Both the position numbers and the translations under genes were made by a program. A stretch of 64,000 bases of DNA from Escherichia coli (lineage in GTDB: Bacteria > Pseudomonadota > Gammaproteobacteria > Enterobacterales > Enterobacteriaceae): NCBI RefSeq assembly GCF_002854065.1, contig NZ_CP024147.1; one strand, written 5' to 3'. The notes under the pieces are model-generated. The model had not been told where the DNA came from. It searched no databases and saw only the letters and a program-made list of their open reading frames with translations. Position 1 is the first letter of the stretch. Each line of letters begins with the position of its first letter. Positions 11,474 to 64,000 of this stretch are shown piece by piece.

Positions 11474-11517
11474 AACAGGTGCTGCACACAACCAGACGCG
11501 GCACCTGTTTTATTACC
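11474..11517. terminator. hairpin plus T-run between convergent yhgN and the DprA-like gene (likely bidirectional terminator)
   Basis: Arms aaacaggtgc (11474-11483) and gcacctgttt (11501-11510), followed by ttttatt. Confidence 0.5.
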
Positions 11518-35045: not shown

Positions 35046-35085
35046 TCGTCAAGTTTGATTTCAAAAGTGATGACCAACGAGAAAT

Positions 35086-35188
<103 letters not shown>

Positions 35189-35244
35189 AAGCAACGTACT
35201 CGATATTAGCAATTTGGCGGCAACCCAAAGTTGCCGATTAATGA

Positions 35245-36348
35245 TTACTTCGCATCGGTCGCCGTGCCGTTGGCGTGCCAGTCAAACACACCGAACTCAA
35301 AGCCTTTCAGATCACCTTTCTCATCCCACGTCAGCGGACCCATCACGGTATCAACCGAGTTCGCTTTCAGGTATTTGGCGATCTCAGCCGGATCGTCAGA
35401 CTGATTCAGGCCCGCCTGCAAAGATTGCAGCGCGGCGTAGGTGGTCCAGACGAATGCGCCGCTTGGGTCCTGTTTTTTCGCTTTGATCGCATCAACAATG
35501 GGTTTGTTCGCCGGAACCTGATCGTAGTTCTTCGGCTTGGTCACCAGCAGCCCTTCCGCTGATTCGCCCGCAATGTTAGACAGCGAAACGTTAGCCACGC
35601 CTTCCGGCCCCATAAACTGAGTTTTCAGCCCTGCCGCGCGTGCCTGACGCAGGATTTGCCCCATTTCCGGGTGATAACCGCCGTAGTAAACGAAGTCGAT
35701 ATTCTCTTTTTTCAGACGCGCCACCAGCGTTGAGAAATCTTTTTCCCCGGCGGTGATACCATCAAAGAACACCACGTTAGCATTGCCTTTCTTCAGGCCG
35801 TCCTGCACCGCTCGCGCCAGACCTTCGCCGTATTGCTGTTTGTCGTGAACGATAGCAATACGCTGCGGTTTCACTTTCTCAAGAATATATTTCGCCGCCG
35901 TCGGCCCCTGGTCGGAGTCCAGGCCGGTAGTGCGCAGGATCAGCTGATAGCCACGGGCGGTCAGCTCCGGCGCGGTTGCCGCTGGGGTGATCATTAAAAT
36001 GCCTTCGTCTTCGTAGATGTCAGACGCAGGCTGCGTTGATGAAGAACAGAGGTGACCAATCACATATTTAATGCCGTCGTTAACGACTTTGTTCGCCACC
36101 GCAACCGCCTGTTTCGGGTCACAGGCATCGTCATATTTTACGATTTGCAGTTTGTTGCCTTTAATGCCGCCTTTAGCGTTGATATCCGCAACCGCCTGCT
36201 CTGCGCCGGTAAACTCCTGGTCACCGTACTGCGCAACCGGACCGGACATTGCGCCCACGACCGCGACTTTAATATCTTCTGCCAGAGCCATATTACTGAA
36301 TGCCAGCGCGATACATCCTGCCAGTAACGCTTTACCCTTTATGTTCAT
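35245..36348 (-). CDS. livJ: Leu/Ile/Val periplasmic binding protein
   Basis: ORF 35245..36405; ATG at 36346-36348 gives [23 protein letters not shown] (signal peptide). Confidence 0.94.
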
Positions 36349-48557: not shown

Positions 48558-49607
48558 ATGGAAACCCCTCAACCCGATAAAACGGGCATGCACATTCTGC
48601 TCAAGCTGGCCTCGCTGGTAGTGATCCTGGCGGGCATTCACGCAGCGGCAGATATCATTGTGCAGCTGTTACTGGCGCTGTTTTTTGCCATCGTCCTCAA
48701 CCCGCTCGTCACCTGGTTTATTCGTCGGGGAGTACAACGCCCCGTTGCCATTACGATTGTAGTGGTGGTGATGCTGATCGCACTAACCGCGCTGGTCGGC
48801 GTACTGGCGGCATCGTTTAACGAATTTATCTCTATGCTGCCGAAGTTTAATAAGGAGCTGACGCGCAAACTTTTTAAATTGCAGGAGATGTTGCCTTTTC
48901 TTAATTTGCATATGTCGCCGGAGCGAATGCTGCAGCGGATGGACTCGGAAAAAGTGGTTACCTTCACCACGGCGCTAATGACCGGGCTTTCCGGGGCAAT
49001 GGCGAGCGTGCTTTTGCTGGTGATGACCGTAGTTTTTATGCTGTTTGAAGTGCGCCACGTCCCTTACAAAATGCGTTTTGCGCTGAATAACCCACAGATT
49101 CACATCGCAGGATTACACCGCGCACTTAAAGGCGTTTCGCATTATCTGGCGTTAAAGACGCTACTCAGTTTATGGACAGGTGTCATCGTCTGGCTGGGGC
49201 TGGAGCTGATGGGGGTGCAGTTTGCGCTGATGTGGGCAGTACTGGCGTTTTTGCTTAACTACGTGCCCAATATCGGCGCGGTAATTTCCGCCGTACCGCC
49301 AATGATTCAGGTGCTGCTGTTTAATGGTATTTACGAATGTATTCTGGTCGGCGCATTGTTTTTAGTTGTCCATATGGTCATCGGCAATATTTTAGAGCCA
49401 CGGATGATGGGCCATCGCCTGGGGATGTCCACCATGGTGGTATTTCTTTCATTGTTAATTTGGGGATGGCTGCTCGGCCCGGTAGGGATGCTACTTTCGG
49501 TGCCATTAACCAGCGTGTGTAAAATCTGGATGGAAACGACGAAAGGCGGTAGCAAACTGGCGATTTTACTGGGGCCGGGCAGACCGAAAAGTCGGTTACC
49601 GGGTTAA
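48558..49607 (+). CDS. yhhT: AI-2E/PerM-family transporter
   Basis: ORF 48477..49607; ATG at 48558 (RBS aagga) gives METPQPDKTGMHILLKLASLVV. Confidence 0.9.
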   Translation: METPQPDKTGMHILLKLASLVVILAGIHAAADIIVQLLLALFFAIVLNPLVTWFIRRGVQRPVAITIVVVVMLIALTALVGVLAASFNEFISMLPKFNKELTRKLFKLQEMLPFLNLHMSPERMLQRMDSEKVVTFTTALMTGLSGAMASVLLLVMTVVFMLFEVRHVPYKMRFALNNPQIHIAGLHRALKGVSHYLALKTLLSLWTGVIVWLGLELMGVQFALMWAVLAFLLNYVPNIGAVISAVPPMIQVLLFNGIYECILVGALFLVVHMVIGNILEPRMMGHRLGMSTMVVFLSLLIWGWLLGPVGMLLSVPLTSVCKIWMETTKGGSKLAILLGPGRPKSRLPG

Positions 49608-49626
49608 TAGCACCTCCTGAGCAGGC

Positions 49627-49657
49627 AATGGCCACCGTTTATCTAACAGTGGCCATT
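49627..49657 (+). terminator. yhhT terminator hairpin
   Basis: Arms aatggccac (49627-49635) and gtggccatt (49649-49657), followed by tgatttg. Confidence 0.45.
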
Positions 49658-49659
49658 TG

Positions 49660-49986
49660 ATTTGAGGAAATGATGAAACATTATTCAGAAAATTAATTTA
49701 AAAAAACCATTCCTTAAGTCAAATATATATAAACGCCGAATAGCGATTAAATCCTTCTCAAAGAATGCACTGATAACATTGTGTTATTTTTATTGCCTCA
49801 TTTTTCTCACTCACTTATAGTTGGTCCCTGCTGGCAGTAATTTAGTCATTTCAGAGATTTTTACTCTGATGTGCACTTACTGACTTATCTCACAAGTAAT
49901 TTTTTCTCTAAATAAAGAATAGTGATGCCAGCAATTACAGTTAAATCTTGCTTTACTCGTAAAAACAATACTTTAATGGGGTTCTA
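49660..49986. other. AT-rich junction between core (yhhT) and accessory cluster; probable island boundary and cluster promoter
   Basis: Visibly AT-rich (long A/T runs), no ORFs in any frame, immediately precedes the first cluster gene. Confidence 0.6.
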
Positions 49987-50376
49987 ATGAGACATTACAT
50001 GAAGTGGTTTGCGGCTATTGCTGTTGTGGGTGCTTTAGCAGGTTGCGCGCGTACTGCGCCAATTGATCAGGTTCACTCAACCGTCAGCGCTGGTCATACC
50101 CAGGAACAAGTGAAAAAAGCGATTCTGAAAGCTGGCGTTGAACGCAAATGGATTATGTCCGAAGCCGGACAAGGCATAATTAAAGCACGTCAACAGTCAC
50201 GCGATCATTCAGCGGAAATACGCATTAACTACACGGCATCCAGCTACGATATCAATTATGAAAATAGCCAGAACCTACAAGCGTCAGGCGGACAAATTCA
50301 TAAAAACTACAATCGCTGGGTCCGCAATCTCGACAAAGATATTCAACTGAATTTGTCAGCGGGCGCAGATTTATAA
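49987..50376 (+). CDS. small lipoprotein, first gene of the APE-type cluster
   Basis: 129-aa ORF MRHYMKWFAAIAVVGALAGC (signal peptide plus lipobox); alternative start 49999; lower GC than downstream genes. Confidence 0.7.
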   Translation: MRHYMKWFAAIAVVGALAGCARTAPIDQVHSTVSAGHTQEQVKKAILKAGVERKWIMSEAGQGIIKARQQSRDHSAEIRINYTASSYDINYENSQNLQASGGQIHKNYNRWVRNLDKDIQLNLSAGADL

Positions 50377-50435
50377 TTCTTCCTAAAGTCGGGCCGTTGC
50401 GGTCCGATAATAATTTAATTCCCTCTTAACAGGTT

Positions 50436-51503
50436 GTGCCCAACATGTACGAACAGGATTCTCTTAGCGCACTGGATGCGATTACCGAAGCTCAACGCAT
50501 TGCCTTTGCCCCTATGCTTTTTCAAACAGCACTCTGCCTACGTAATGCGGGTGTACTTTCATATCTGGATCGGCAAGGCAAACATGGCGCAACGCTGGCT
50601 GATATCACCGAACATAGCCATATCAACGAATATGCTGCCAGCGTTCTGTTAGATATGGGCTTAAGCGGGCGAATTATTACCTGTAAAGAGGGAATTTATT
50701 ACCTGGCGAAAATCGGTCATTACCTCCTGCATGACACTATGACTCGCGTGAATATGGATTTCACCCAGGATGTCTGTTACCAGGGGCTCTTCTTCCTCGC
50801 CGATTCACTCAATGAAGGAAAACCTTCCGGGTTAAAAGTATTTGGCGACTGGTCGACGATATATCCGGCACTTTCGCAATTACCAGACGCCGCTCGTGAA
50901 AGCTGGTTTGCGTTTGATCATTACTATTCAGATGGCGCATTTAACGCCGTACTGCCTTATGTATTCGCCAACAACCCCACAACATTGTACGATGTAGGCG
51001 GCAATACGGGTAAGTGGGCTTTGCGTTGCTGCAAATACAATGAAAACATCGCCGTGACGTTATTAGATCTGCCACAACAAATCGTACTAGCGAAAGAAAA
51101 TATCGCGAATGCAGGTTTTTCTGATCGCATAGATTTCCATGCGGTGGATATGCTAAGCGATGCCCCATTACCGGGCGAGGCTGATATCTGGTGGATGAGC
51201 CAATTTTTAGACTGTTTTTCACCCGAACAAATAATTAGCATACTCAGCAAAATTGCCAGCGTAATGAAGCCTGGCGCAAAAGTTTGCATCATGGAGTTGT
51301 TCTGGGATGCGCAGCGGTTTGAAGCAGCATCGTTTAGCCTGAACGCGTCCTCACTTTATTTTACCTGCATGGCAAACGGTAACAGCCGTTTCTATAGTGC
51401 AGAGAAATTTTACGACTATCTGAATAAAGCAGGATTCCAGGTAGCAGAGCGCCACGATAATTTAGGCGTTGGGCATACACTTTTGATATGCCAAAAGAAA
51501 TAA
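50436..51503 (+). CDS. apeB: SAM-dependent (O-)methyltransferase
   Basis: 355-aa ORF; Rossmann SAM motif LYDVGGNTGKWAL. Symbol inferred from conserved ape cluster order; verify. Confidence 0.7.
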   Translation: MPNMYEQDSLSALDAITEAQRIAFAPMLFQTALCLRNAGVLSYLDRQGKHGATLADITEHSHINEYAASVLLDMGLSGRIITCKEGIYYLAKIGHYLLHDTMTRVNMDFTQDVCYQGLFFLADSLNEGKPSGLKVFGDWSTIYPALSQLPDAARESWFAFDHYYSDGAFNAVLPYVFANNPTTLYDVGGNTGKWALRCCKYNENIAVTLLDLPQQIVLAKENIANAGFSDRIDFHAVDMLSDAPLPGEADIWWMSQFLDCFSPEQIISILSKIASVMKPGAKVCIMELFWDAQRFEAASFSLNASSLYFTCMANGNSRFYSAEKFYDYLNKAGFQVAERHDNLGVGHTLLICQKK

Positions 51504-51543
51504 TCGTCACTTAATAATTTTGGTTTACCGCGGGCGCGCGTTG

Positions 51544-52266
51544 ATGAAATTTACATTAAATATTACCGACTGGCAGGCACTGGCGCCTGGACTTAGCGAA
51601 GCGCAGCAATGGCAAGCATGGTCGCGCCAGCCGTGGGCGATTGACCCTGCCGCGCCGTTGGCAAAATTAAGTGAACTGCCAATGATGACCGCCCGCCGCC
51701 TCAGTTCAGGCAGCAAACTGGCTGTTGAATGCGGTCTGGCAATGCTACGCCGCCATCAGCCAGACGCCGTTTTGTATACCAGTCGTCATGGCGAACTGGA
51801 GCGCAATTACCGCATTGTTCATGCACTGGCAACCGAACAGGCGCTTTCTCCGACGGACTTCGCGCTCTCCGTACACAACTCTTCCGTGGGTAACCTGACC
51901 ATTGCGGCCAAACAGCCGATCGTTTCGTCATCGCTTTCGGCTGGTCGCGACACTTTCCAGCAAGGTTTGTGTGAAGTGCTTAGTCTGTTACAGGCGGGCT
52001 ACCAGCGCGTGTTGATGGTCGATTTTGATGGCTTTCTGCCTGAGTTCTATCATCCACAACTGCCCGCAGAAATGCCGACCTGGCCGTACGCCGTCGCGCT
52101 GGTGATTGAAGCTGGCGATGAGTGGCAATGTGGAACGCAGTCAGCCATTGCGGGTAATGAAACAACACTGCCGCAAAGCATGTTGTTTTTACAGCACTAT
52201 TTACAAAATGCGGACACATTTTCACTGCCTGGCGAGCGCGTACAGTGGCGCTGGAGCCGTGGATGA
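51544..52266 (+). CDS. apeC: short KS-like partner protein (chain-length-factor-like)
   Basis: ORF 51520..52266 (TTG); ATG at 51544 gives MKFTLNITDWQALAPG; about 240 aa, far shorter than a full KAS; ATGA overlap with the next gene. Confidence 0.6.
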   Translation: MKFTLNITDWQALAPGLSEAQQWQAWSRQPWAIDPAAPLAKLSELPMMTARRLSSGSKLAVECGLAMLRRHQPDAVLYTSRHGELERNYRIVHALATEQALSPTDFALSVHNSSVGNLTIAAKQPIVSSSLSAGRDTFQQGLCEVLSLLQAGYQRVLMVDFDGFLPEFYHPQLPAEMPTWPYAVALVIEAGDEWQCGTQSAIAGNETTLPQSMLFLQHYLQNADTFSLPGERVQWRWSRG

Positions 52267-53084
52267 GTAAGCTGCTGTCACGTCTGGAGTGGACCTGGCG
52301 ACTGGTCATGACCGGGTTATGTTTTGCCCTGTTTGGTCTCGGCGGCCTGCTGCTTTCTGTCGTGTGGTTTAACATATTGTTAGTTTTGGTGTGGGATACT
52401 TCCCGCCGCCGTCGTTTGGCGCGTCGCAGCATTGCCGCCAGTTTTCGCCTGTTTTTAACTGTCGCGAAAGGGCTTGGCGTGCTGGATTATCGTATTGATG
52501 GCGCTGAAATTTTACGTCAGGAACGCGGTTGCCTCGTCGTAGCCAATCATCCCACGCTGATCGATTACGTGCTGCTGGCGTCAGTCATGCCAGAAACTGA
52601 CTGCCTGGTGAAAAGCGCGCTGTTAAAAAATCCTTTTCTTGGCGGCGTCGTGCGGGCGGCAGATTATTTAATCAACAGCGAAGCTGAAACCCTGTTACCC
52701 CGCTGCCAACAGCGACTGGCACAGGGTGACACTATCCTGATTTTCCCCGAAGGCACGCGAACGAAGCCCGGTGAAAAAATGACGCTGCAGCGCGGGGCGG
52801 CGAATATTGCCGTGCGCTGTGCCAGCGATTTACGCATCGTGACGATCGGCTGTAGCGAGCATCTGCTGGATAAACAAAGTAAATGGTATGACGTTCCACC
52901 TGACCGGCCGTTTTTTACGGTTGCAGTCCATGGTCGGGTTGAAATCAATAAATTTTACGATGCAACTTCACAAGAACCGGCGCTGGCAGCAAGGCAGTTA
53001 AACCGGCATCTTTTGCTTCAATTACAACAAGGTTGTTTACCTCTCTCAGGAATAAATAATGCAAGCGCTTTATCTGGAAATTAA
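52263..53084 (+). CDS. lysophospholipid/glycerol-3-phosphate acyltransferase family protein
   Basis: ORF 52245..53084; HX4D motif NHPTLIDY and FPEGTRT motif; start chosen at the ATGA overlap (52263). Confidence 0.75.
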   Translation: MSKLLSRLEWTWRLVMTGLCFALFGLGGLLLSVVWFNILLVLVWDTSRRRRLARRSIAASFRLFLTVAKGLGVLDYRIDGAEILRQERGCLVVANHPTLIDYVLLASVMPETDCLVKSALLKNPFLGGVVRAADYLINSEAETLLPRCQQRLAQGDTILIFPEGTRTKPGEKMTLQRGAANIAVRCASDLRIVTIGCSEHLLDKQSKWYDVPPDRPFFTVAVHGRVEINKFYDATSQEPALAARQLNRHLLLQLQQGCLPLSGINNASALSGN

Positions 53085-53316
53085 AAACCTCATCATCAGC
53101 ACCCTCAATCTGGACGAGTTGACGCCTGATGATATCGATACCGACGCGCCGCTGTTTGGCGACGGTTTAGGGCTGGACTCTATCGATGCCCTGGAACTGG
53201 GACTGGCAGTAAAAAATGAGTACGGCATCGTGCTCTCTGCGGAAAGCGAAGAGATGCGTCAGCACTTTTTCTCCGTCGCCACTCTGGCCTCTTTCATTGC
53301 TGCGCAACGTGCCTGA
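53059..53316 (+). CDS. apeE: acyl carrier protein
   Basis: 85-aa acidic ORF with phosphopantetheine-site motif LGLDSIDALEL. Confidence 0.8.
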   Translation: MQALYLEIKNLIISTLNLDELTPDDIDTDAPLFGDGLGLDSIDALELGLAVKNEYGIVLSAESEEMRQHFFSVATLASFIAAQRA

Positions 53317-53327
53317 GGAAAGCCATC

Positions 53328-53579
53328 ATGACAGAACAACAAACCGTCTATCAGGAAGTCTCAGCCCTGCTGGTTAAGCTGTTTGAAATCGATCCGCAGG
53401 ACATCAAACCTGAAGCGCGCCTGTACGAAGATCTGGAACTGGACAGCATCGACGCCGTTGACATGATTGTGCACCTGCAAAAGAAAACCGGTAAGAAAAT
53501 CAAGCCGGAAGAGTTTAAAGCAGTGCGTACAGTCCAGGATGTCGTCGAGGCTGTAGAACGCCTGCTACAAGAAGCCTGA
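53328..53579 (+). CDS. apeF: acyl carrier protein
   Basis: 83-aa ORF with LELDSIDAVDM motif. Confidence 0.8.
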   Translation: MTEQQTVYQEVSALLVKLFEIDPQDIKPEARLYEDLELDSIDAVDMIVHLQKKTGKKIKPEEFKAVRTVQDVVEAVERLLQEA

Positions 53580-53583
53580 TCTG

Positions 53584-54165
53584 ATGTCGGGCATTCGCTC
53601 GCTACCGATGATTAAGCTGCTGACTGGATTATTGCTGCTCGCCTGGCCGTTTGTGATTTGGTTTGGCTTAGCGCATAACGGCCTGCACTGGCTGTTGCCG
53701 CTAATAGCGTTGCTGCTTTTGTTGCGCCTGCGCCAGACCCGTCGCCAGGCGGGGCCGCTCCAGGTCGTCACACAAATCGTCGCTGTCGTGGGCATCGCAT
53801 TATGTGTCGCCAGCGTTCTGTTGAAAACACACCAGCTACTGCTGTTTTACCCGGTAGTGGTTAACGCGGTCATGCTGGCGGTTTTTGGCGGTTCGCTGTG
53901 GTCGGCAATGCCGATAGTTGAGCGGCTGGCGCGTTTGCAGGAGCCAGATCTGCCGGAAAAGGGCATGCGCTATACCCGCCGCGTCACGCAAATCTGGTGC
54001 GGCTTTTTCATCATCAACGGTGGAATTGCCCTCTTTACCGCGCTTTATGCCGATATGTCGTTATGGACCGCCTGGAACGGCATGATTGCTTATTTGTTGA
54101 TGGGAACATTAATGGCTGGTGAATGGCTGGTGCGCCGTCAGGTGATGAAAAGAGATCGCGCATGA
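53584..54165 (+). CDS. integral membrane protein of unknown function
   Basis: 193-aa ORF with several hydrophobic segments (LLLAWPFVIWFGL, VVGIALCVASVLL, ...). Confidence 0.65.
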   Translation: MSGIRSLPMIKLLTGLLLLAWPFVIWFGLAHNGLHWLLPLIALLLLLRLRQTRRQAGPLQVVTQIVAVVGIALCVASVLLKTHQLLLFYPVVVNAVMLAVFGGSLWSAMPIVERLARLQEPDLPEKGMRYTRRVTQIWCGFFIINGGIALFTALYADMSLWTAWNGMIAYLLMGTLMAGEWLVRRQVMKRDRA

Positions 54166-55523
54166 AGCAGACCTTACCGCTTGCACGCTGGCTGACTGCG
54201 CCACGCTCTGATGACACACCCATTGCGTGGCTGGACGAAAGCTTCTGGACGCTGGGCGATTTGCGTCACGATGTCGCGCAACTTATCTGCCGCTTGCAGC
54301 AACAGCCGGGTGAACGCTGGGCGCTGTGCTTTGAGAACAGCTATCTGTTTATCGTTGCCCTGCTCGCCACGCTACACGCCGGAAAAACGCCGGTGCTTCC
54401 GGGGCATAACCGTGTTATCCAGCTTAACGAGCAACGTGAACTTTTTGATGGTGTGCTTAGCGACAGCGAACTTAACTGGCAAGGTTCATTGCTGTTGGTA
54501 GCAAGTTCCCCACAAATCGCGACACAATCCTTCACCTTTGCCGCTATAGCGCCAGAGGCTTTTATCGAGCTGTTTACCTCCGGTTCCACGGGACAGCCGA
54601 AACGGGTGATTAAACCTGTTCATTTGCTGGATCGTGAAGCAGAACTGCTGGCTGAACGATTAGGCGCACGTCTGGCGGGTTGTCGTGTCGTCGGTTCCGT
54701 ATTGCCGCAGCATTTGTACGGCCTGACTTTTCGCGTTTTCCTGCCCATGGCGTTGGGATTACCGCTGCACGCCGCCATGCTCTGGTATGTCGAACAGTTT
54801 GCCGCGTTGAGTCATCAGCATCGCTATATCTTCATCAGCAGCCCGGCATTTTTGAAGCGCCTGGATACCCAGCTTTCTCCGCCACCCGTTCAGGTGCTTC
54901 TCTCTGCTGGCGGTGAGCTGCCGTGGCAGGATGTACAACACACCGCAAGCTGGCTGCGCGTCTGGCCTGATGAAATCTACGGCAGCACGGAAACCGGTGT
55001 CATCGCCTGGCGTTACCGCGAACAAGAGCAACGCCGCTGGCTACCCTTCCCTGGTATGCAGTTCCAGGCCGAAGGTGATTCTTTTCGTCTCTTTTCACCG
55101 CTGATGGCGGAAGATAACGGCCTGTTACTCGACGATCTCTTGCAGTTTAGCCAGGACGGTCAGTTCCATCTGATGGGGCGTCGTGGGCGCATCGTTAAGA
55201 TTGAAGAAAAACGTATTTCACTCCAGGAAGTAGAACAACGTCTGCTGGCGCTGGACGGTATTCGCGAGGCGGCGGCAGTTCCCGTTACGCGCGGCGGGCG
55301 TCAGAGCATAGGCGTTTTGCTGGTGCTGGATGACGAAGCTCATCTGCAATGGCAGAACGGCGGCGGGCATAGCCAGGAAATGACCTGGCGGCGTTTACTG
55401 CGCCCGACGCTGGAGCCAGTTGCTATTCCGCGTTACTGGCGCGTTATTGATGAAATGCCAGTAAACAGTATGAACAAGCGTGTCTATGCGCAATTACAGG
55501 AGTTATTTCATGAAGCCCCATGA
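54162..55523 (+). CDS. apeH: AMP-dependent synthetase/ligase (acyl/aryl-activating enzyme)
   Basis: ORF 54123..55523; start at the ATGA overlap 54162 (MKQTLPLARW); AMP-binding motif TSGSTGQPKRV. Confidence 0.78.
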   Translation: MKQTLPLARWLTAPRSDDTPIAWLDESFWTLGDLRHDVAQLICRLQQQPGERWALCFENSYLFIVALLATLHAGKTPVLPGHNRVIQLNEQRELFDGVLSDSELNWQGSLLLVASSPQIATQSFTFAAIAPEAFIELFTSGSTGQPKRVIKPVHLLDREAELLAERLGARLAGCRVVGSVLPQHLYGLTFRVFLPMALGLPLHAAMLWYVEQFAALSHQHRYIFISSPAFLKRLDTQLSPPPVQVLLSAGGELPWQDVQHTASWLRVWPDEIYGSTETGVIAWRYREQEQRRWLPFPGMQFQAEGDSFRLFSPLMAEDNGLLLDDLLQFSQDGQFHLMGRRGRIVKIEEKRISLQEVEQRLLALDGIREAAAVPVTRGGRQSIGVLLVLDDEAHLQWQNGGGHSQEMTWRRLLRPTLEPVAIPRYWRVIDEMPVNSMNKRVYAQLQELFHEAP

Positions 55524-55863
55524 AATCGAGCGCCATCAGGCACAAACGAATCACCTTGAAATTGTTCTGCATCTCAGGGCGGATCTGTTCTGGTTTCGCG
55601 GTCATTTTGCCGTGCAACCATTACTCCCAGGAGTTGCGCAAATCGACTGGGCGATGAGCTACGCGCTCAATCTGCTCGCGCCTGGCTGGCGTTTTCACTC
55701 CATTCAGAACATAAAATTCCAGTCTCCGTTGCTGCCGGAAAACCGCGTCACGCTCGCGCTTAACTGGCAGGAAGAACGCCAGATTCTGAGCTTTAGCTAT
55801 CAGCGTCACGACGGTGACGCCCGCCACACCGCCAGTAGCGGGAAGATCCGCCTATGTCGGTAA
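55510..55863 (+). CDS. apeI: hotdog-fold (3R)-hydroxyacyl-ACP dehydratase-like protein
   Basis: ORF 55480..55863; FabA/FabZ-like motif GHFAVQPLLPGV; start 55510 overlaps the upstream gene. Confidence 0.7.
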   Translation: MKPHEIERHQAQTNHLEIVLHLRADLFWFRGHFAVQPLLPGVAQIDWAMSYALNLLAPGWRFHSIQNIKFQSPLLPENRVTLALNWQEERQILSFSYQRHDGDARHTASSGKIRLCR

Positions 55864-57530
55864 ACTTTTCTCCCTGCGTGTTGATTCCCTGCTATAACCA
55901 CGGCGCGATGATGCCGGGCGTGCTGGCGCGTCTTAAGCCATTTAATCTCCCCTGTATTGTGGTGGACGACGGCAGCGATGCCGCCACGCAACAGCAACTG
56001 GATAATCTGGTTAGCGAACAGCCTGGCGTGACCTTAATTCGCTTAGCAGAAAACGCAGGTAAAGGCGCGGCAGTGATGCGTGGCTTACAGGCAGCGGCAG
56101 ACGCAGGGTTCAGCCATGCGGTGCAGGTGGATGCTGACGGTCAACATGCGATTGAAGATATCCCCAAACTGCTGGCACTCGCTGAACGACACCCTGCGGC
56201 GCTGATCTCCGGCCAGCCAATTTACGATGACTCCATCCCCCGCTCACGGCTTTACGGGCGCTGGGTCACCCACGTCTGGGTATGGATCGAAACGCTCTCC
56301 CTGCAACTGAAAGACAGCATGTGCGGCTTTCGCGTTTATCCGGTTGCGCCAACGCTGCAACTGGCAAAACACGCCACCATCGGCAAGCGGATGGATTTCG
56401 ACACTGAAGTGATGGTGCGCCTCTACTGGCAGGGAAACACCAGCTATTTCGTGCCGACCCGCGTCACCTATCCACTGGACGGGCTTTCGCATTTTGATGC
56501 CCTGAAAGATAACGTCCGCATCTCGCTCATGCACACGCGTCTGTTTTTCGGCATGTTACCGCGTATTCCTTCACTGCTGATGCGCCGCTCTTCCAGCCAC
56601 TGGGCGCGGCAGAGTGAAGTGAAAGGATTATGGGGAATGCGCCTGATGCTGCTGGTCTGGCGTCTGCTGGGAAGAACGGCGTTTAGCGCGCTGCTTTACC
56701 CGGTGGTGGGCGTCTACTGGCTCACTGCTTCTCGTGCGCGCAAAGCGTCGCAAGACTGGCTCGCCCGTGTACGACAGCATCAACCACAGGCGGCAAAACT
56801 CAACAGCTATCAGCACTTTCTACGTTTCGGTAATGCCATGCTCGACAAAATCGCCAGTTGGCGCGGCGAGCTGCAACTGGGGCGCGATGTGCTGTTTGCG
56901 CCAGGCGCAGAAGCGGCACTTAACGTCAGCGATCCGCGCGGCAAATTGCTGCTGGCCTCGCATCTTGGCGATGTGGAAGTGTGCCGGGCGCTGGCAAAAA
57001 TTCAGGGCTACAAAACCATTAACGCGCTGGTGTTTAGCGAAAACGCCCAACGCTTTAAACAGATAATGCAGGAGATGGCCCCGCAGGCCGGCATCAACCT
57101 GATGCCGGTAACGGATATCGGCCCGGAAACCGCCATCCTGCTCAAAGAGAAGCTGGATAACGGCGAATGGGTGGCGATTGTCGGTGACCGCATCGCCGTC
57201 AACCCGCAACGCGGCGGCGACTGGCGCGTCTGCTGGAGTCCGTTTATGGGCCAGCCTGCGCCCTTCCCACAGGGGCCGTTTATTCTCGCGTCTATTTTGC
57301 GCTGCCCGGTGAATCTGATTTTCGCCCTGCGCCAGCACGGCAAGCTGCATATTCACTGCGAAACCTTTGCCGACCCGCTGCTGTTGCCGCGTGGCGAACG
57401 CCAACAGGCGCTGCAAAACGCTATCGACCACTACGCCGCGCGTCTGGAACATTACGCGCTCCAGTCGCCCCTCGACTGGTTTAATTTTTTCGATTTCTGG
57501 CAACTGCCGGAAATTCAGGACAAGGAGTAA
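55854..57530 (+). CDS. bifunctional GT2 glycosyltransferase / lipid-A-type acyltransferase-like protein
   Basis: 558 aa; N-terminus CVLIPCYNHG...VVDDGSDA...DADGQH (GT-A DxD); C-terminal half resembles HtrB/LpxL-type acyltransferases. Confidence 0.7.
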   Translation: MSVNFSPCVLIPCYNHGAMMPGVLARLKPFNLPCIVVDDGSDAATQQQLDNLVSEQPGVTLIRLAENAGKGAAVMRGLQAAADAGFSHAVQVDADGQHAIEDIPKLLALAERHPAALISGQPIYDDSIPRSRLYGRWVTHVWVWIETLSLQLKDSMCGFRVYPVAPTLQLAKHATIGKRMDFDTEVMVRLYWQGNTSYFVPTRVTYPLDGLSHFDALKDNVRISLMHTRLFFGMLPRIPSLLMRRSSSHWARQSEVKGLWGMRLMLLVWRLLGRTAFSALLYPVVGVYWLTASRARKASQDWLARVRQHQPQAAKLNSYQHFLRFGNAMLDKIASWRGELQLGRDVLFAPGAEAALNVSDPRGKLLLASHLGDVEVCRALAKIQGYKTINALVFSENAQRFKQIMQEMAPQAGINLMPVTDIGPETAILLKEKLDNGEWVAIVGDRIAVNPQRGGDWRVCWSPFMGQPAPFPQGPFILASILRCPVNLIFALRQHGKLHIHCETFADPLLLPRGERQQALQNAIDHYAARLEHYALQSPLDWFNFFDFWQLPEIQDKE

Positions 57531-57533
57531 AGG

Positions 57534-57956
57534 GTGCTTAACGATCCCCGATTTACCGCTGAAGTCGAGCTGACCATTCCCTTTCACGACGTCGATATGA
57601 TGGGCGTGGCCTGGCACGGTAACTATTTTCGCTACTTTGAAGTGGCCCGCGAGGCGCTGCTCAACCAGTTCAATTACGGCTATCGGCAGATGAAAGAGTC
57701 CGGTTATTTGTGGCCAGTGGTCGATGCGCGGGTGAAATATCGCCACGCCCTCACCTTTGAGCAACGCATCCGCGTGCGTGCGCATATCGAAGAGTTCGAA
57801 AACCGTCTGCGGATTGGCTATCAGATTTTCGATGCCGAAACGGGCAAACGCGCCACCACCGGATACACCATTCAGGTCGCGGTCGACGAGCAAAGTCGCG
57901 AACTGTGCTTTGTCAGCCCCGATATTCTGTTTGAACGCATGGGAGTCAAACCATGA
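57534..57956 (+). CDS. apeK: 4HBT/YbgC-type acyl thioesterase
   Basis: 140-aa ORF (GTG start); hotdog thioesterase pattern HDVDMMGVAWHGNYFRYFEVAR. Confidence 0.75.
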   Translation: MLNDPRFTAEVELTIPFHDVDMMGVAWHGNYFRYFEVAREALLNQFNYGYRQMKESGYLWPVVDARVKYRHALTFEQRIRVRAHIEEFENRLRIGYQIFDAETGKRATTGYTIQVAVDEQSRELCFVSPDILFERMGVKP

Positions 57957-58558
57957 AATTTTTACCGCTACTGGCGCTGCTGATTAGCCCGTTTGTGAGC
58001 GCCCTGACCCTGGACGATCTTCAGCAACGCTTTACCGAACAATCGGTGATCCGCGCCCATTTCGATCAAACCCGGACGATTAAAGATCTGCCGCAGCCGC
58101 TGCGATCTCAGGGCCAGATGTTGATCGCCCGCGACCAGGGGCTGTTGTGGGATCAAACCTCACCGTTCCCCATGCAACTATTACTGGACGATAAACGCAT
58201 GGTGCAGGTGATCAACGGTCAGCCGCCGCAAATCATCACGGCAGAAAACAACCCGCAGATGTTTCAGTTTAACCACCTGCTGCGCGCGCTGTTCCAGGCC
58301 GATCGCAAAGTGCTGGAACAAAACTTCCGCGTCGAATTTACCGACAAAGGCGAAGGCCGCTGGACGCTGCGCCTGACCCCAACCACCACGCCGCTGGATA
58401 AAATTTTCAACACCATCGATCTCGCCGGGCAAACCTATCTGGAGAGCATTCAACTTAATGATAAACAGGGCGATCGCACCGATATTGCTCTTACCCAACA
58501 TCAACTGACGCCAGCGCAACTGACCGATGACGAACGCCAACGTTTTGCCGCCCAGTAA
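57953..58558 (+). CDS. LolA-like outer-membrane lipoprotein carrier
   Basis: 201 aa, signal peptide MKFLPLLALLISPFVSA; LolA-family length and layout. Confidence 0.65.
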   Translation: MKFLPLLALLISPFVSALTLDDLQQRFTEQSVIRAHFDQTRTIKDLPQPLRSQGQMLIARDQGLLWDQTSPFPMQLLLDDKRMVQVINGQPPQIITAENNPQMFQFNHLLRALFQADRKVLEQNFRVEFTDKGEGRWTLRLTPTTTPLDKIFNTIDLAGQTYLESIQLNDKQGDRTDIALTQHQLTPAQLTDDERQRFAAQ

Positions 58559-60845
58559 ACGCCCCGCGCTGTTATGGGGGCTAGTCTGCCTGGTCATGGC
58601 GGCGGCGTTGCTGATCCTGCTGCCGCAATCACGGCTGAACAGTAGCGTGCTGGCTATGTTACCCAAACAGGCGATGGGCGATATTCCCCCAGCGCTGAAT
58701 GACGGCTTTATGCAGCGTCTGGACCGCCAACTGGTGTGGCTGGTCAGCCCCGGTAAAGAGGCTAATCCCAGGGTGGCTCAGGAGTGGCTGACGCTGCTGC
58801 AAAAATCCGCTGCGCTCGGCGACGTTAAAGGGCCAATGGATGCCGCCAGCCAGCAAGCGTGGGGCGCGTTTTTCTGGCAGCACCGCAACGGCCTGATTGA
58901 CCCCGACACCCGCGCCCGCCTGCAAAACGGCGGCGAAGCGCAGGCGCAGTGGATCCTCTCCCAGCTTTATTCTGCATTCTCCGGGGTAAGCGGCAAGGAG
59001 CTGCAAAACGATCCGCTGATGTTAATGCGCGGCTCGCAGCTGGCGATGGCAAAAAATGGCCAGCGTTTGCGGCTGATGGACGGCTGGCTGGTGACGCAGG
59101 ATCCCCAGGGCAACTACTGGTATCTGCTGCACGGCGAACTGGCGGGATCGTCGTTTGATATGCAGCAAACCCACCAGCTCATCACGACCCTGAATACGCT
59201 GGAAAAGGATCTGAAAACGCGTTACCCACAGGCGCAGTTGCTCTCGCGCGGCACGGTATTTTACAGCGATTACGCCAGTCAACAGGCGAAGCAGGATATC
59301 TCAACCCTGGGCGTGGCAACGCTGCTGGGGGTGATATTACTGATTGTGGCGGTGTTCCGCTCTTTGCGCCCATTGTTGCTTTGCGTGATTTCCATCGGCA
59401 TCGGCGCGCTGGCGGGAACGGTCGCCACTTTATTGATTTTCGGTGAATTACACCTGATGACGCTGGTGATGAGCATGAGCGTTATCGGCATTTCCGCTGA
59501 CTACACGCTCTATTATCTCACCGAGCGGATGGTGCACGGCAACGACGTTTCGCCGTGGCAAAGCCTGGCGAAAGTACGCAATGCCCTGCTGCTGGCGCTG
59601 CTCACCACCGTGGCGGCATATCTGATTATGATGCTCGCCCCCTTCCCCGGCATTCGCCAGATGGCGATTTTTGCCGCCGTCGGGTTGAGCGCCTCCTGTC
59701 TGACCGTCCTGTTCTGGCATCCGTGGCTGTGCCGTGGCCTGCCGGTGCGTCCGGTTCCGGCGATGGCGCTGATGCTGCGCTGGCTGGCAGCGTGGCGGCG
59801 CAATAAAAAACTGTCGCTGGGTCTGCCCGTCGCGCTGGCGCTGTTTTCGCTGGCGGGGATGTCAATGCTGCGCGTCGATGACGATATCTCGCAGTTACAG
59901 GCGCTGCCGCAGCATATTCTGGCGCAGGAGAAAGCCATTACCGCCCTGACCGGACAAAGCGTCGATCAAAAATGGTTTGTGGTTTACGGCGATTCGCCAC
60001 AGCAAACATTGCGGCGACTGGAGAAATATACCGCCTCACTTGAGTATGCGAAAAAAGAGGGGCTTATCAGCAACTACCGCACCATTCCGCTGAACTCCCT
60101 TGCGCGGCAGGAGGAAGATTTACAACTGCTGAAAACGGCGGCCCCGACAGTAACAAAAGCGCTGCAAAATGCCGGGCTGACGGCAGTGAACCCGGATCTC
60201 AACGCCATGCCAGTGAACGTTGATGAATGGCTGGCAAGCCCTGCCAGTGAAGGCTGGCGTCTGCTGTGGCTGACGCTGGAAAACGGCGAAAGCGGCGTAC
60301 TGGTGCCGGTTGAAGGGGTTAAAAGTAGCGCGTTGATGCAGGAAATCGCCACATATTACCCTTGCGGCATTGCCTGGGTTGATCGCAAAAGCACCTTTGA
60401 TGAGTTGTTCGCGCTTTACCGTTATGTCTTAACCGGCTTGTTGCTGGTGGCGCTGGCGGTGATTGCCTGCGGCGCAGTGGCCCGTCTCGGCTGGCGCAAA
60501 GGGCTTATCAGCCTTGTACCTTCGGTGCTTTCGCTGGGTTGTGGTCTGGCGGTGCTGGCGATGAGCGGGCAGGCGGTGAATCTCTTTTCGCTGCTGGCGC
60601 TGGTGCTGGTGCTTGGCATCGGCATCAACTACACGCTGTTTTTCAGTAATCCGCGCGGCACACCATTAACTTCGCTACTGGCGATCACGCTGGCAATGCT
60701 CACCACCTTGCTGACGCTGGGAATGCTGATATTCAGCGCCACCCAGGCCATCAGCAGTTTTGGCATTGTGCTGGTGAGCGGTATTTTCACCGCCTTCCTG
60801 CTTTCGCCGCTGGCGATGCCCGATAAAAAGAGAACAAAAAAATGA
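58527..60845 (+). CDS. MMPL/RND-superfamily exporter
   Basis: 772-aa ORF with two blocks of TM helices separated by large soluble domains. Confidence 0.75.
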   Translation: MTNANVLPPSKRPALLWGLVCLVMAAALLILLPQSRLNSSVLAMLPKQAMGDIPPALNDGFMQRLDRQLVWLVSPGKEANPRVAQEWLTLLQKSAALGDVKGPMDAASQQAWGAFFWQHRNGLIDPDTRARLQNGGEAQAQWILSQLYSAFSGVSGKELQNDPLMLMRGSQLAMAKNGQRLRLMDGWLVTQDPQGNYWYLLHGELAGSSFDMQQTHQLITTLNTLEKDLKTRYPQAQLLSRGTVFYSDYASQQAKQDISTLGVATLLGVILLIVAVFRSLRPLLLCVISIGIGALAGTVATLLIFGELHLMTLVMSMSVIGISADYTLYYLTERMVHGNDVSPWQSLAKVRNALLLALLTTVAAYLIMMLAPFPGIRQMAIFAAVGLSASCLTVLFWHPWLCRGLPVRPVPAMALMLRWLAAWRRNKKLSLGLPVALALFSLAGMSMLRVDDDISQLQALPQHILAQEKAITALTGQSVDQKWFVVYGDSPQQTLRRLEKYTASLEYAKKEGLISNYRTIPLNSLARQEEDLQLLKTAAPTVTKALQNAGLTAVNPDLNAMPVNVDEWLASPASEGWRLLWLTLENGESGVLVPVEGVKSSALMQEIATYYPCGIAWVDRKSTFDELFALYRYVLTGLLLVALAVIACGAVARLGWRKGLISLVPSVLSLGCGLAVLAMSGQAVNLFSLLALVLVLGIGINYTLFFSNPRGTPLTSLLAITLAMLTTLLTLGMLIFSATQAISSFGIVLVSGIFTAFLLSPLAMPDKKRTKK

Positions 60846-61426
60846 TCAAATCCACATTCTGGCGAGCGTTCGCCCTGACCGCTACGCTTATCCTCACCGG
60901 CTGTAGCCACTCGCAACCAGAACAGGAAGGCCGCCCGCAGGCGTGGCTGCAACCTGGCACGCGCATCACGCTGCCGGCACCAGGGATTTCACCCGCAGTC
61001 AATTCGCAGCAACTGTTGACCGGCAGCTTCAACGGCAAAACCCAGTCGCTGTTAGTGATGCTTAACGCCGACGATCAGAAAATCACCCTTGCCGGGCTGT
61101 CGTCGGTCGGCATTCGCCTGTTTCTGGTGACCTACGATGCGCAAGGGCTACGCGCCGAGCAATCCATCGTCGTCCCACAGTTACCGCCCGCAAGTCAGGT
61201 ACTGGCTGACGTGATGCTCAGCCACTGGCCGATTAGCGCCTGGCAACCGCAACTTCCCGCAGGATGGACACTTCGCGACAACGGTGACAAACGCGAGCTG
61301 CGTAACGCCAGCGGCAAACTGGTCACGGAAATCACCTATCTGAATCGCAAGGGCAAACGCGTGCCAATCAGCATTGAGCAGCATGTCTTTAAATACCACA
61401 TCACCATTCAATACTTAGGTGACTGA
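60842..61426 (+). CDS. lipoprotein (DUF3261-like)
   Basis: 194 aa, MIKSTFWRAFALTATLILTGC lipobox. Confidence 0.65.
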   Translation: MIKSTFWRAFALTATLILTGCSHSQPEQEGRPQAWLQPGTRITLPAPGISPAVNSQQLLTGSFNGKTQSLLVMLNADDQKITLAGLSSVGIRLFLVTYDAQGLRAEQSIVVPQLPPASQVLADVMLSHWPISAWQPQLPAGWTLRDNGDKRELRNASGKLVTEITYLNRKGKRVPISIEQHVFKYHITIQYLGD

Positions 61427-62597
61427 TATGATTTATATTTCCGCCGTCGGCATGATCAACGCCCTGGGAAATAACCTTGACGAAATCGCAACCAACCTGA
61501 CTCGCGGTGTTGCTCCCGGCATGCGCCCGCGCGCAGGCTGGTTGCAGGGGCATCCGCAGGCGGTCCTGGCTGGCGTGGATGGCGAGCTTCCGCTTATCCC
61601 GGAAAAATTCGCTGCGCACCGCTCGCGCAACAATCAGATCCTGCTGGCGGCGCTGGCGCAGATCCAGCCGCAGGTTGATGACGCTATCGCGAAATATGGT
61701 CGCGAGCGCATCGCGATTGTACTTGGCACCAGCACCTCCGGCCTGCATGAAGGCGACACGCACGTTAACCTGCGCACCCACGGGCAGCCGAGCACCACAT
61801 GGCACTACGCGCAACAGGAACTCGGCGATCCGTCGCGTTTTCTCAGCCACTGGCTGGCGCTCGACGGCCCGGCCTATACCCTTTCAACCGCCTGCTCTTC
61901 CAGCGCCAGAGCGATAATCAGCGGGCGCAGGCTTATCGAAGCGGGGCTGGTCGATGCCGCCATTGTGGGTGGCGCAGACACCCTGAGCCGGATGCCGATT
62001 AACGGTTTTCACAGCCTCGAATCGCTGTCGCCAACCTTATGTCAGCCGTTTGGTCGTGACCGCGCAGGTATCACCATTGGTGAAGGGGCGGGGCTAATGC
62101 TGCTGACCCGGGAACCGCAGCCCATCGCGTTGCTGGGCGTTGGTGAATCGAGCGACGCTTACCATATTTCGGCCCCGCATCCGCAGGGCGAAGGGGCGAT
62201 CCGCGCCATTAATCAGGCACTGACCGATGCGCAGCTTACGCCAGATGACGTCGGCTATATCAACCTGCACGGCACCGCCACGCAACTCAACGACCAGATT
62301 GAATCGATGGTGCTTAACGCCCTGTTTGGCGAACGCGTACCGTGCAGCTCCACCAAACATTTGACCGGCCACACGCTGGGCGCGGCGGGCATTACCGAAG
62401 CAGCAATCAGTATGTTGATCTTACAGCGTGATTTACCGCTGCCCGCCCAAGATTTCAGCCTGTCGCCACGCGATCCCACGCTGCCACCCTGCGGCATTAT
62501 CGAAAAACCGCAGCCGCTGGCTCGTCCGGTGATCCTGTCCAATTCCTTCGCCTTTGGCGGCAATAACGCCAGCATTCTGCTCGGGAGGGTTTCGTGA
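61419..62597 (+). CDS. apeO: beta-ketoacyl-ACP synthase (KAS I/II-like)
   Basis: 392 aa; active-site Cys TACSSS, His motifs HGTATQLND and GHTLGAAG. Confidence 0.85.
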   Translation: MTDMIYISAVGMINALGNNLDEIATNLTRGVAPGMRPRAGWLQGHPQAVLAGVDGELPLIPEKFAAHRSRNNQILLAALAQIQPQVDDAIAKYGRERIAIVLGTSTSGLHEGDTHVNLRTHGQPSTTWHYAQQELGDPSRFLSHWLALDGPAYTLSTACSSSARAIISGRRLIEAGLVDAAIVGGADTLSRMPINGFHSLESLSPTLCQPFGRDRAGITIGEGAGLMLLTREPQPIALLGVGESSDAYHISAPHPQGEGAIRAINQALTDAQLTPDDVGYINLHGTATQLNDQIESMVLNALFGERVPCSSTKHLTGHTLGAAGITEAAISMLILQRDLPLPAQDFSLSPRDPTLPPCGIIEKPQPLARPVILSNSFAFGGNNASILLGRVS

Positions 62598-63058
62598 GCC
62601 ACTATTTATCCCCCGGCGCTTATCTGCCCCACGACGCGCCCATGTTACTGCTGGAAGACGTGGTGAGCGTCAGCGATGACAGCGCGGTGTGCCGCGTGAC
62701 GGTTTCGCCCAGTGGCGTACTGGCACCGTTTCTCGACCCGGACGGCAATCTCCCCGGCTGGTTTGCCCTTGAACTGATGGCGCAAACCGTCGGCGTCTGG
62801 TCTGGCTGGCATCGCCACCAGCAGGGCAAAAACAGTATTGAGTTAGGGATGATACTGGGCGCGCGTGAATTGCTTTGCGCCGCTGGCATTCTGCCCGCAG
62901 GCCAGACGCTGACCATTACCGTCAAACTGCTGATGCAGGACGATCGCTTCGGCAGTTTTGAGTGCAGCATCAACGACGGCGAGGCGACGGGCCGCATTAA
63001 CACCTTCCAGCCGACCGCGGAAGAACTTACCACCCTGTTTCAACAAGGAGCGTCCTGA
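62594..63058 (+). CDS. apeP: hotdog-fold dehydratase
   Basis: 154-aa ORF; 4-nt overlap with KS, 1-nt overlap with KR. Confidence 0.7.
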   Translation: MSHYLSPGAYLPHDAPMLLLEDVVSVSDDSAVCRVTVSPSGVLAPFLDPDGNLPGWFALELMAQTVGVWSGWHRHQQGKNSIELGMILGARELLCAAGILPAGQTLTITVKLLMQDDRFGSFECSINDGEATGRINTFQPTAEELTTLFQQGAS

Positions 63059-63789
63059 TGAGTCGTTCAGTTCTGGTTACTGGTGCCAGCAAAGGCATTG
63101 GTCGCGCCATCGCCTGCCAACTGGCGGCAGACGGCTTTAACATTGGCGTTCACTATCACCGTGACGCCACAGGCGCTCAGGAAACGCTGAATGCCATTGT
63201 CGCCAACGGGGGTAACGGGCGTTTGCTCAGTTTCGACGTCGCAAACCGCGAACAGTGTCGGGAAGTGCTGGAGCATGAGATCGCGCAACACGGTGCCTGG
63301 TACGGCGTGGTCAGTAACGCCGGGATCGCCCGCGATGCCGCTTTTCCGGCTTTAAGCGATGACGACTGGGATGCGGTGATCCACACCAACCTCGACAGTT
63401 TCTACAACGTCATTCAGCCGTGCATTATGCCAATGATCGGCGCGCGCCAGGGTGGGCGCATCATCACGCTGTCCTCGGTTTCCGGCGTAATGGGCAATCG
63501 CGGCCAGGTGAATTACAGCGCAGCCAAAGCCGGAATTATCGGCGCAACTAAAGCGCTGGCTATCGAACTCGCGAAGCGCAAAATCACCGTCAACTGCATC
63601 GCGCCGGGGCTTATTGATACCGGGATGATCGAAATGGAAGAGAGCGCTCTGAAAGAGGCAATGTCGATGATCCCCATGAAACGTATGGGCCAGGCGGAAG
63701 AAGTTGCCGGGCTTGCCAGTTATTTAATGTCTGATATTGCGGGTTACGTCACCCGCCAGGTTATTTCCATCAACGGAGGGATGTTATGA
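63058..63789 (+). CDS. apeQ: 3-oxoacyl-ACP reductase (SDR, FabG-like)
   Basis: 243 aa; TGASKGIGRAIA NAD(P)-binding and YSAAKAG catalytic motifs. Confidence 0.88.
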   Translation: MSRSVLVTGASKGIGRAIACQLAADGFNIGVHYHRDATGAQETLNAIVANGGNGRLLSFDVANREQCREVLEHEIAQHGAWYGVVSNAGIARDAAFPALSDDDWDAVIHTNLDSFYNVIQPCIMPMIGARQGGRIITLSSVSGVMGNRGQVNYSAAKAGIIGATKALAIELAKRKITVNCIAPGLIDTGMIEMEESALKEAMSMIPMKRMGQAEEVAGLASYLMSDIAGYVTRQVISINGGML

Positions 63790-64000
63790 CACGTCGCGTA
63801 GTGATTACAGGAATGGGCGGCGTGACTGCCTTTGGTGAAAACTGGCAGGACGTTTCTGCACGCTTACTGGCGTATGAAAATGCGGTGCGCAAAATGCCGG
63901 AGTGGCAGGTCTACGATGGCCTGCACACCCTGCTTGGCGCGCCTGTTGATGATTTCACGCTACCGGAGCACTATACCCGCAAGCGTATCCGTGCGATGGG
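63786..64000 (+). CDS. apeR: beta-ketoacyl-ACP synthase (partial, N-terminal 71 codons; continues beyond window)
   Basis: ATG at 63786 (ATGA overlap with KR); MTRRVVITGMGGVTAFGENWQD (KAS N-terminus). Confidence 0.75.
   Translation, partial: MTRRVVITGMGGVTAFGENWQDVSARLLAYENAVRKMPEWQVYDGLHTLLGAPVDDFTLPEHYTRKRIRAM

Follow-up and report, generated by a model that had tools for sequence, protein, structure and literature searches.

Two adjacent small genes in a 64,000-nucleotide stretch of Escherichia coli DNA (contig NZ_CP024147.1, here called the window) can be assigned by sequence to apeE and apeF. Their products are the acyl carrier proteins (ACPs) dedicated to the E. coli aryl-polyene (APE) cluster, which is of the type II polyketide synthase (PKS)-like kind. 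All the testable features that define these two proteins, namely the curated profiles, the motifs, the insertions and deletions (indels), the position of the attachment serine, and the cluster context, have been observed in them. Aryl-polyene clusters form the most widespread family of biosynthetic gene clusters in Gram-negative bacteria. By analogy with the orthologues, the full model that probably applies to the pair attributes to ApeE the transport of both the primer and the chain, and regards ApeF as an ancient accessory paralogue, most likely a donor of malonyl units. A first-pass annotation of the window had noted two small acidic open reading frames (ORFs) with a DSID motif, and had taken their divergence as a sign of functional specialization (for example, starter versus elongation) rather than of recent duplication. 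The observation is correct, its interpretation is supported, and the finding is already known, the checks proposed in that annotation (pairwise comparison, individual deletions, and loading by the AMP-ligase) having been published (PMC8253772, PMC12624758). Beyond a correct annotation, the significance is therefore slight, as the ApeE/ApeF tandem is well described, with published structures, deletions, and loading assays.

Identification of the two carrier proteins

The two ORFs lie exactly at the coordinates given in the first-pass annotation (Table 1), on the same strand and separated by a spacer of 11 nt. Both are acidic, with an isoelectric point (pI) of 4.05 and a net charge of -11 for ApeE, and of 4.61 and -7 for ApeF. 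Both match the phosphopantetheine (PP)-binding family PF00550, with 33.3 bits for ApeE and 50.4 bits for ApeF against a Pfam gathering cut-off of 20.8 bits. The DSID tetrapeptide comprises residues 40-43 of ApeE (nt 53176-53187) and residues 39-42 of ApeF (nt 53442-53453), and the six-frame translation of the whole window contains no other copy than these two. The attachment serine of each protein sits where helix 2 begins, in a D-S-[LI] motif (D40-S41-I42 in ApeE, D39-S40-I41 in ApeF), and aligns with the DSL serine of AcpP. The pairwise comparison that had been proposed revealed 30% identity over 81 aligned residues (BLASTP, E 2e-9), and about 52% at the DNA level, which agrees with the claim that the ORFs differ substantially. 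RefSeq calls the identical two coding sequences (CDSs) in E. coli SCU-316, which is 100% identical across a 3.3-kb stretch.

The assignment of each ORF to its own family is unequivocal in the curated NCBIfam profiles. ApeE reached 90.8 bits with NF006617 (cut-off 70 bits) and ApeF 146 bits with NF003757 (cut-off 65 bits), and each scored far under the cut-off of the other's model. A search of all Protein Data Bank (PDB) sequences placed 9LS6 at the top for ApeE (E 1.6e-25, 58% identity), with the next PDB match at E 2e-4, and 9L1V at the top for ApeF (E 5.7e-19, 44% identity). Cross matches did not appear: 9L1V is not in the ApeE list at E <= 0.01, nor 9LS6 in the ApeF list at E <= 1e-4. These two structures are ApeE and ApeF of Acinetobacter baumannii, respectively (Lee et al. 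2025, PMC12624758), which are also encoded in tandem. When E-type and F-type proteins of E. coli and A. baumannii are crossed, the identity amounts to 26-34%.

The alignments to 9LS6 and 9L1V are ungapped, so that the residue numbering transfers directly, and the attachment serines coincide with Ser41 and Ser40 of the A. baumannii proteins. According to Lee et al. (2025), ApeE is marked by a glycine-rich motif before helix 2, by G48, and by insertions in the alpha1-alpha2 and alpha2-alpha3 loops, while ApeF is defined by the shallow-cavity residues V38, A43, F63, K64, and V66. In the window ApeE, the glycine-rich motif ahead of helix 2 reads F33-G34-D35-G36-L37-G38 (FGxGLGLDS in both species), and S41, F33, G34/G36/G38, A44, L45, G48, and F70 are retained, with R67 in place of K67. 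Both E-specific loop insertions with respect to ApeF and AcpP are present, a 3-aa LDE and a 6-aa SAESEE, corresponding to LED and NAESDE in A. baumannii. In ApeF, S40, D42, A43, F63, K64, and V66 are retained, with L38 in place of V38. The A. baumannii pair is known from NMR structures and binding data, whereas the E. coli pair is compared by sequence. AcpP, the housekeeping carrier of type II fatty acid synthesis, belongs to the same four-helix PP-binding fold family and shares the D-S-[LI]-D motif, but it is only 23-26% identical to the two proteins, and it has DSLD and a deep acyl cavity. In ApeE, which has the loop insertions, the substrate is bound in a pocket at the surface (PMC12624758).

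The two proteins have long been separate. When 1.84 billion cluster representatives were searched exhaustively with phmmer, 2404 proteins related to ApeE came up at E ≤ 1e-3, of which 595 passed E ≤ 1e-10. The genomic context was looked up for six representatives with 46-55% identity. In four of these six loci (L006, L007, L008/L009, and L012), an acyltransferase, the E-type ACP, a second ACP of 83 or 84 aa, a small ApeG-sized protein, and an AMP-binding enzyme follow one another, as far as the contigs reach; a protein of this apeG-like size thus holds the same position in distant loci. An ApeD-like gene lies upstream of the E-type ACP in L007, L008/L009, L010, and L011, and the D-E-F-G-H order is retained in relatives of 47-55% identity. 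Locus L009 (CP000774.1) presumably belongs to the alphaproteobacterium Parvibaculum lavamentivorans. A neighbour-joining tree built on a MAFFT alignment of eight E-type and seven F-type sequences together with AcpP resolves two clean clades, E and F; identities range over 42-58% among E-type proteins and 35-54% among F-type proteins, and are 19-35% across the two. The E clade carries fixed indels: three additional residues in the alpha1-alpha2 loop, one additional Gly before DSID, and six additional residues in the alpha2-alpha3 loop. In many genera of Enterobacterales, ApeE-type proteins show 84-99% conservation. The separation of the two clades, and the indels that tell them apart, indicate that the apeE/apeF duplication is ancient and that the pair is an old, co-inherited module. 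The claim that the duplication was not recent is borne out by the distinct NCBIfam families, by the fact that each ACP has its own A. baumannii orthologue, and by the two clades.

Several variants of the arrangement were found among the relatives. Metagenomes contain natural fusions of ApeE and ApeF in one polypeptide, ApeE invariably coming first (P0129, L005 30-554, 174 aa; P0169, 182 aa). A shorter protein, P0123 (141 aa), resembles a full ApeE to which the C-terminal half of ApeF alone, beginning at the DSID region, is joined. In the metagenomic locus L010 (2220-3718), the E-type ACP stands alone and is followed directly by a gene whose product, truncated at the contig end to 404 aa, has an AMP-binding match from about residue 326; this product may be an ApeG-ApeH fusion. 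Such single-ACP clusters, which also include that of xanthomonadin (XanC), resemble the E. coli one in having an E-type ACP after chain-length factor (CLF) and acyltransferase genes, but differ in being without an adjacent F-type ACP. Locus L009 (6070-7725) encodes a 551-aa fusion of an AMP-binding and an ApeI-like protein, with an aromatic ammonia-lyase gene downstream.

Proposed roles of ApeE and ApeF

The identity and orthology of the two ORFs come from the present comparisons; the enzymology is taken from experiments on orthologues, namely those of the CFT073 lineage (96% identity, as measured on the Nissle strain), A. baumannii (58% and 44%), and Xenorhabdus doucetiae. AcpT, the phosphopantetheinyl transferase (PPTase) encoded next to the cluster, would convert both ACPs to the holo form on the serine of DSID. 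ApeH would activate 4-hydroxybenzoate by adenylation and transfer it directly to holo-ApeE, on which the polyene would be extended in cycles by ApeO-ApeC (ketosynthase-CLF, KS-CLF), ApeQ (ketoreductase, KR), and ApeI-ApeP (dehydratase, DH). ApeF, with its shallower pocket, is most likely charged with malonyl by FabD, a housekeeping enzyme, and passes on extender units. It would be useful, yet ApeE or AcpP could probably stand in for it in part. The specialization suggested in the first-pass annotation corresponds to this published model, in which ApeH prefers ApeE when loading 4-hydroxybenzoate and FabD binds ApeF, with the deletion phenotypes described below (PMC8253772, PMC12624758). The split between starter and elongation needs a nuance, since ApeE would carry the growing polyene as well as the starter.

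The assignment of priming and elongation to ApeE is based on several lines of published work. The ApeE and ApeF homologues of O157:H7 are phosphopantetheinylated by AcpT in vitro, according to the work of De Lay and Cronan as cited in PMC8253772. In X. doucetiae, whose proteins are likened to the E. coli pair by cluster family and gene names as given in the citing papers, both ACPs can be loaded by ApeH, ApeF far less efficiently (Grammbitter 2019, as cited in PMC8253772 and PMC12624758); this is the source of the ApeH-ApeE preference in vitro. The ApeH of A. baumannii shifts the nuclear magnetic resonance (NMR) signals of ApeE around S41 and not those of ApeF, and its activity with ApeF is minimal (PMC12624758). 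The same study showed that deletion of the glycine-rich motif in ApeE lowers its affinity for ApeO-ApeC about 100-fold, and that deletions of the ApeE loops reduce both ApeH activity and total APE output. In E. coli CFT073, the ΔapeE mutant makes no pigment at all although apeF is intact, while the ΔapeF mutant retains partial pigment and accumulates yellow intermediates (PMC8253772). The latter phenotype suggests that the function of ApeF is either partly replaceable or downstream of polyene synthesis. Interchangeability, which the first-pass annotation had named as the outcome that would refute its reading, was not observed for ApeE in this published E. coli work (PMC8253772). The A. baumannii ApeF binds FabD and holds malonyl in a shallow cavity that the authors described as "optimized for malonyl transfer" (PMC12624758), which supports a function as donor of extender units.

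A number of points weigh against this model. Its enzymology comes from other alleles and strains than those of the window. The genetics were performed with the ApeH of the CFT073 lineage, which, as measured on Nissle, shares just 66% identity with that of the window, and in the window ApeE the "NAE lid" and the LED of A. baumannii are replaced by SAE and LDE, respectively. The support for ApeF as malonyl donor consists of binding and chemical-shift data from A. baumannii (PMC12624758). As the E. coli ΔapeF mutant still yields pigmented intermediates (PMC8253772), malonyl supply does not strictly depend on ApeF. Finally, a different role for ApeF has been proposed by Grammbitter et al. (bioRxiv 10.1101/2020.12.19.423268).

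In that alternative, ApeF mainly carries the second product chain of the mature APE lipid, a conjugated 3-hydroxy fatty acyl (cFA 26:5), rather than malonyl. The chain would be built by the same KS, KR, and DH enzymes and handed by ApeD to lysophosphatidylglycerol, while ApeE would carry only the aryl polyene, which is attached by ApeJ. The proposal was derived from the structure of the X. doucetiae APE lipid, which has a second conjugated chain (cFA 26:5, 3-OH), together with a deletion series (bioRxiv 10.1101/2020.12.19.423268). The E. coli ΔapeF phenotype is compatible with this role proposed for Xenorhabdus: loss of the lipid-anchor chain would produce such a phenotype, the mutant gives yellow intermediates, and the mature APE-lipid peak was reported only in APE+ and ΔapeR extracts (PMC8253772), which implies that the mature lipid is missing in ΔapeF. 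The tight linkage and overlap of apeD, apeE, and apeF, and their synteny across distant taxa, also fit. On the other hand, the shallow cavity of ApeF, with its FabD binding and the NMR data on malonyl-ApeF, seems unsuited to a C26 chain, and the in vitro APE reconstitutions contained ApeF (PMC12624758). Some APE-type clusters have no second ACP, such as those of xanthomonadin (PMC8253772) and L010, and the cFA is known from the lipid of X. doucetiae rather than from that of E. coli. A predominantly second-chain role is a tentative possibility with a modest chance of being right; it overlaps in part with the preferred model, the role of ApeE being the same, and is compatible with malonyl donation by ApeF. 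It is possible, though less likely than not, that the E. coli ApeF is a dedicated carrier of a second, separately primed conjugated fatty acyl chain, which ApeD would install in the APE lipid. If this were true, one shared set of KS, KR, and DH enzymes would serve two carrier proteins and build two different polyenes in parallel. What interest the pair still holds is narrow and concerns the choice between these two functions of ApeF, along with the pairing of ApeE and ApeH described below.

A much less favourable case can be made for ApeE and ApeF as redundant, interchangeable copies from a recent tandem duplication. The genes are adjacent, on the same strand, similar in size, and have the DSID motif in common, and the residual pigment of ΔapeF indicates some substitution (PMC8253772). 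Against this stand the mere 30% identity, the different curated families, and the E and F clades with fixed indels across Gammaproteobacteria, Alphaproteobacteria, and metagenomic relatives. Moreover, ΔapeE is fully APE-negative with apeF present (PMC8253772), and ApeH discriminates between the ACPs in vitro (PMC12624758). Redundancy is very improbable, and recent duplication was rejected on the family assignments, the reciprocal PDB matches, and the E/F tree. Chance ORFs or unexpressed, decayed pseudogenes, for which nothing specific speaks other than the weak AGGA of apeE and its 26-nt overlap with apeD, are practically out of the question and were rejected on profile scores above the curated cut-offs and on cross-genus conservation (84-99% for ApeE-type proteins), the more so as the ACP genes are intact in frame and 96-97% identical between the two E. 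coli cluster types and the O157:H7 proteins (100% and 99% identical) are modified by AcpT in vitro, as cited in PMC8253772.

The aryl-polyene cluster and its two E. coli types

The pair is embedded in an APE cluster of 18 genes on a single strand, inserted between yhhT and acpT/nikA, in which ApeE is accompanied by ApeH, KS-CLF, KR, and DH enzymes. It is the cluster apeA-apeR that has been described for E. coli CFT073 (PMC8253772). The annotation of the cluster was taken from RefSeq for the syntenic stretch L001 of E. coli SCU-316, where the window coordinate equals the locus coordinate plus 40244. In order, the first half of the cluster encodes a lipoprotein, a methyltransferase, a KS chain-length factor, a lysophospholipid acyltransferase, a PP-binding protein, an ACP, a COG4648 membrane protein, an AMP-binding enzyme, and a FabZ-like dehydratase. 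The second half encodes a GT2 glycosyltransferase, a thioesterase, a LolA-like protein, an MMPL transporter, a DUF3261 protein, a KS, an "ApeP family dehydratase", FabG2, and a KS. NCBIfam matches on the ORFs of the window itself agree with this annotation (FlxJ-family methyltransferase, PRK09185 KS, FabG2, a resemblance to LolA/LolA2-flexirubin, as well as KR, MMPL, and thioesterase matches). For ApeH, the closest NCBIfam resemblance is to 4-coumarate-CoA ligase, under the cut-off. The last gene, apeR, is interrupted by the end of the window, and the PPTase gene acpT lies just beyond.

Table 1. Coordinates of the carrier protein genes, their neighbours, and the aryl-polyene cluster in the window
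Feature	Position	Strand	Description
apeD	52263..53084	+	Lysophospholipid acyltransferase; PF01553 70.7 bits and RefSeq annotation
apeE	53059..53316	+	85-aa acyl carrier protein; attachment Ser41 within FGDGLGLDSID; putative carrier of starter and growing chain
apeF	53328..53579	+	83-aa acyl carrier protein; attachment Ser40 within LELDSID; putative second, accessory carrier
apeG	53584..54165	+	193-aa membrane protein, COG4648 family, from RefSeq names; Pfam gives just a weak IspA-like match
apeH	54162..55523	+	Adenylate-forming enzyme ("AMP-ligase"), PF00501; predicted loading of 4-hydroxybenzoate on ApeE, from literature on orthologues
APE cluster, apeA to apeR	49999..64000	+	RefSeq annotation of syntenic locus L001, NCBIfam matches, and per-gene comparison with Nissle

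The genes around the two ACPs are closely packed. The start codon of apeE sits 26 nt inside the 3' end of apeD (53059-53084), preceded only by a weak Shine-Dalgarno-like AGGA, while apeF has a strong Shine-Dalgarno sequence, GAGGAA, overlapping the apeE stop codon. The next gene, apeG, begins 4 nt past apeF. The apeD/apeE overlap, the GAGGAA on the apeE stop, and the short gap between apeF and apeG suggest translational coupling from apeD to apeG. A consensus scan of 6.2 kb did not reveal any convincing internal promoter or terminator between apeD and apeG; it counted 12 promoter-like sites, the expectation being 6.1 ± 2.9, and 11 terminator-like sites, where 8.0 ± 2.7 would be expected. The simplest reading of these sequence features is that the ACP genes are transcribed together with their neighbours and coupled to them in translation.

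At the DNA level, the stretch from 52245 to 55523 shares 100% identity with E. coli SCU-316 and 98.1% with O157:H7, and it finds a match in 824 of the 5426 complete E. coli genomes, every one of them chromosomal; the window is E. coli chromosome. The pair is nearest to the AcpT substrates of O157:H7, the "ApeEF homologues" of De Lay and Cronan (as cited in PMC8253772), with an identical ApeE, an ApeF at 99% (a single A30T difference), and the same position beside acpT. Essentially nothing distinguishes the two pairs, although the strain of the window is itself not O157:H7.

The APE cluster of CFT073 (Cimermancic 2014; Johnston 2021, PMC8253772) has the same apeD-E-F-G-H order and, on the alleles of the B2-lineage strain Nissle, the same ACP lengths, DSID site, and 11-nt spacer. 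It differs in that the window copy is of the O157:H7 type, at yhhT/acpT, while the Nissle B2-type cluster (L003, NZ_CP148105.1 3080766-3109040) is found elsewhere and its apeG, apeH, and apeI proteins have diverged. E. coli therefore carries the APE cluster at two chromosomal sites at least. The neighbours of the Nissle cluster are a decayed two-partner secretion system of the hemagglutinin-repeat/ShlB type (remnants of contact-dependent-inhibition genes), IS21 remnants, and a garD pseudogene.

Between the two types, the ACPs are well conserved (96.5% protein identity for ApeE and 96.4% for ApeF), and the DNA identity of apeB-F and apeJ-R is 92-99%. It falls to 65% in apeA (49999-50376), and to 84%, 68%, and 73% in apeG, apeH, and apeI (53584-55863), the drop in the latter block starting directly after apeF. 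The corresponding proteins are 81% (ApeG), 66% (ApeH), and 72% (ApeI) identical. In apeA and in the apeG-H-I block, the divergence is thus of the order seen between orthologues of different genera: the window ApeH shares 65-75% identity with its counterparts elsewhere in the Enterobacterales, much as with the Nissle one. For the G-H-I block, a replacement of the cassette is suggested. Relative to the B2 type, the cluster of the window is, by this comparison, a mosaic. As apeE is conserved and apeH diverged, a near-identical ApeE is paired with two very different ApeH proteins within one species. This combination could serve to map the surface by which the ACP and ApeH recognize each other, or help in a search for a different aryl starter.

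The guanine and cytosine (G+C) content climbs along the cluster, from about 44-47% at apeA/apeB (49000-51000) to 57-60% at apeJ-apeQ (56000-63000). This gradient is consistent with a horizontally acquired and possibly composite island.

Beyond the 3.3-kb stretch, the window differs from SCU-316 by about 1% and by one indel. At about 35012-35263, it is without some 750 bp that SCU-316 has between panM and livJ, with the toxin-antitoxin genes ataR-ataT, and for this reason the strain is not SCU-316 despite the fully identical ACP region. Far from the cluster, on the minus strand at about 11513-14811, a DprA-like gene and an overlapping gene for a RecQ-family helicase lie between yhgN and gntU, as read from the synteny with SCU-316. 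The yhgN-gntU region of E. coli K-12 is presumably arranged otherwise. The two genes may constitute a small accessory islet, possibly related to defence.

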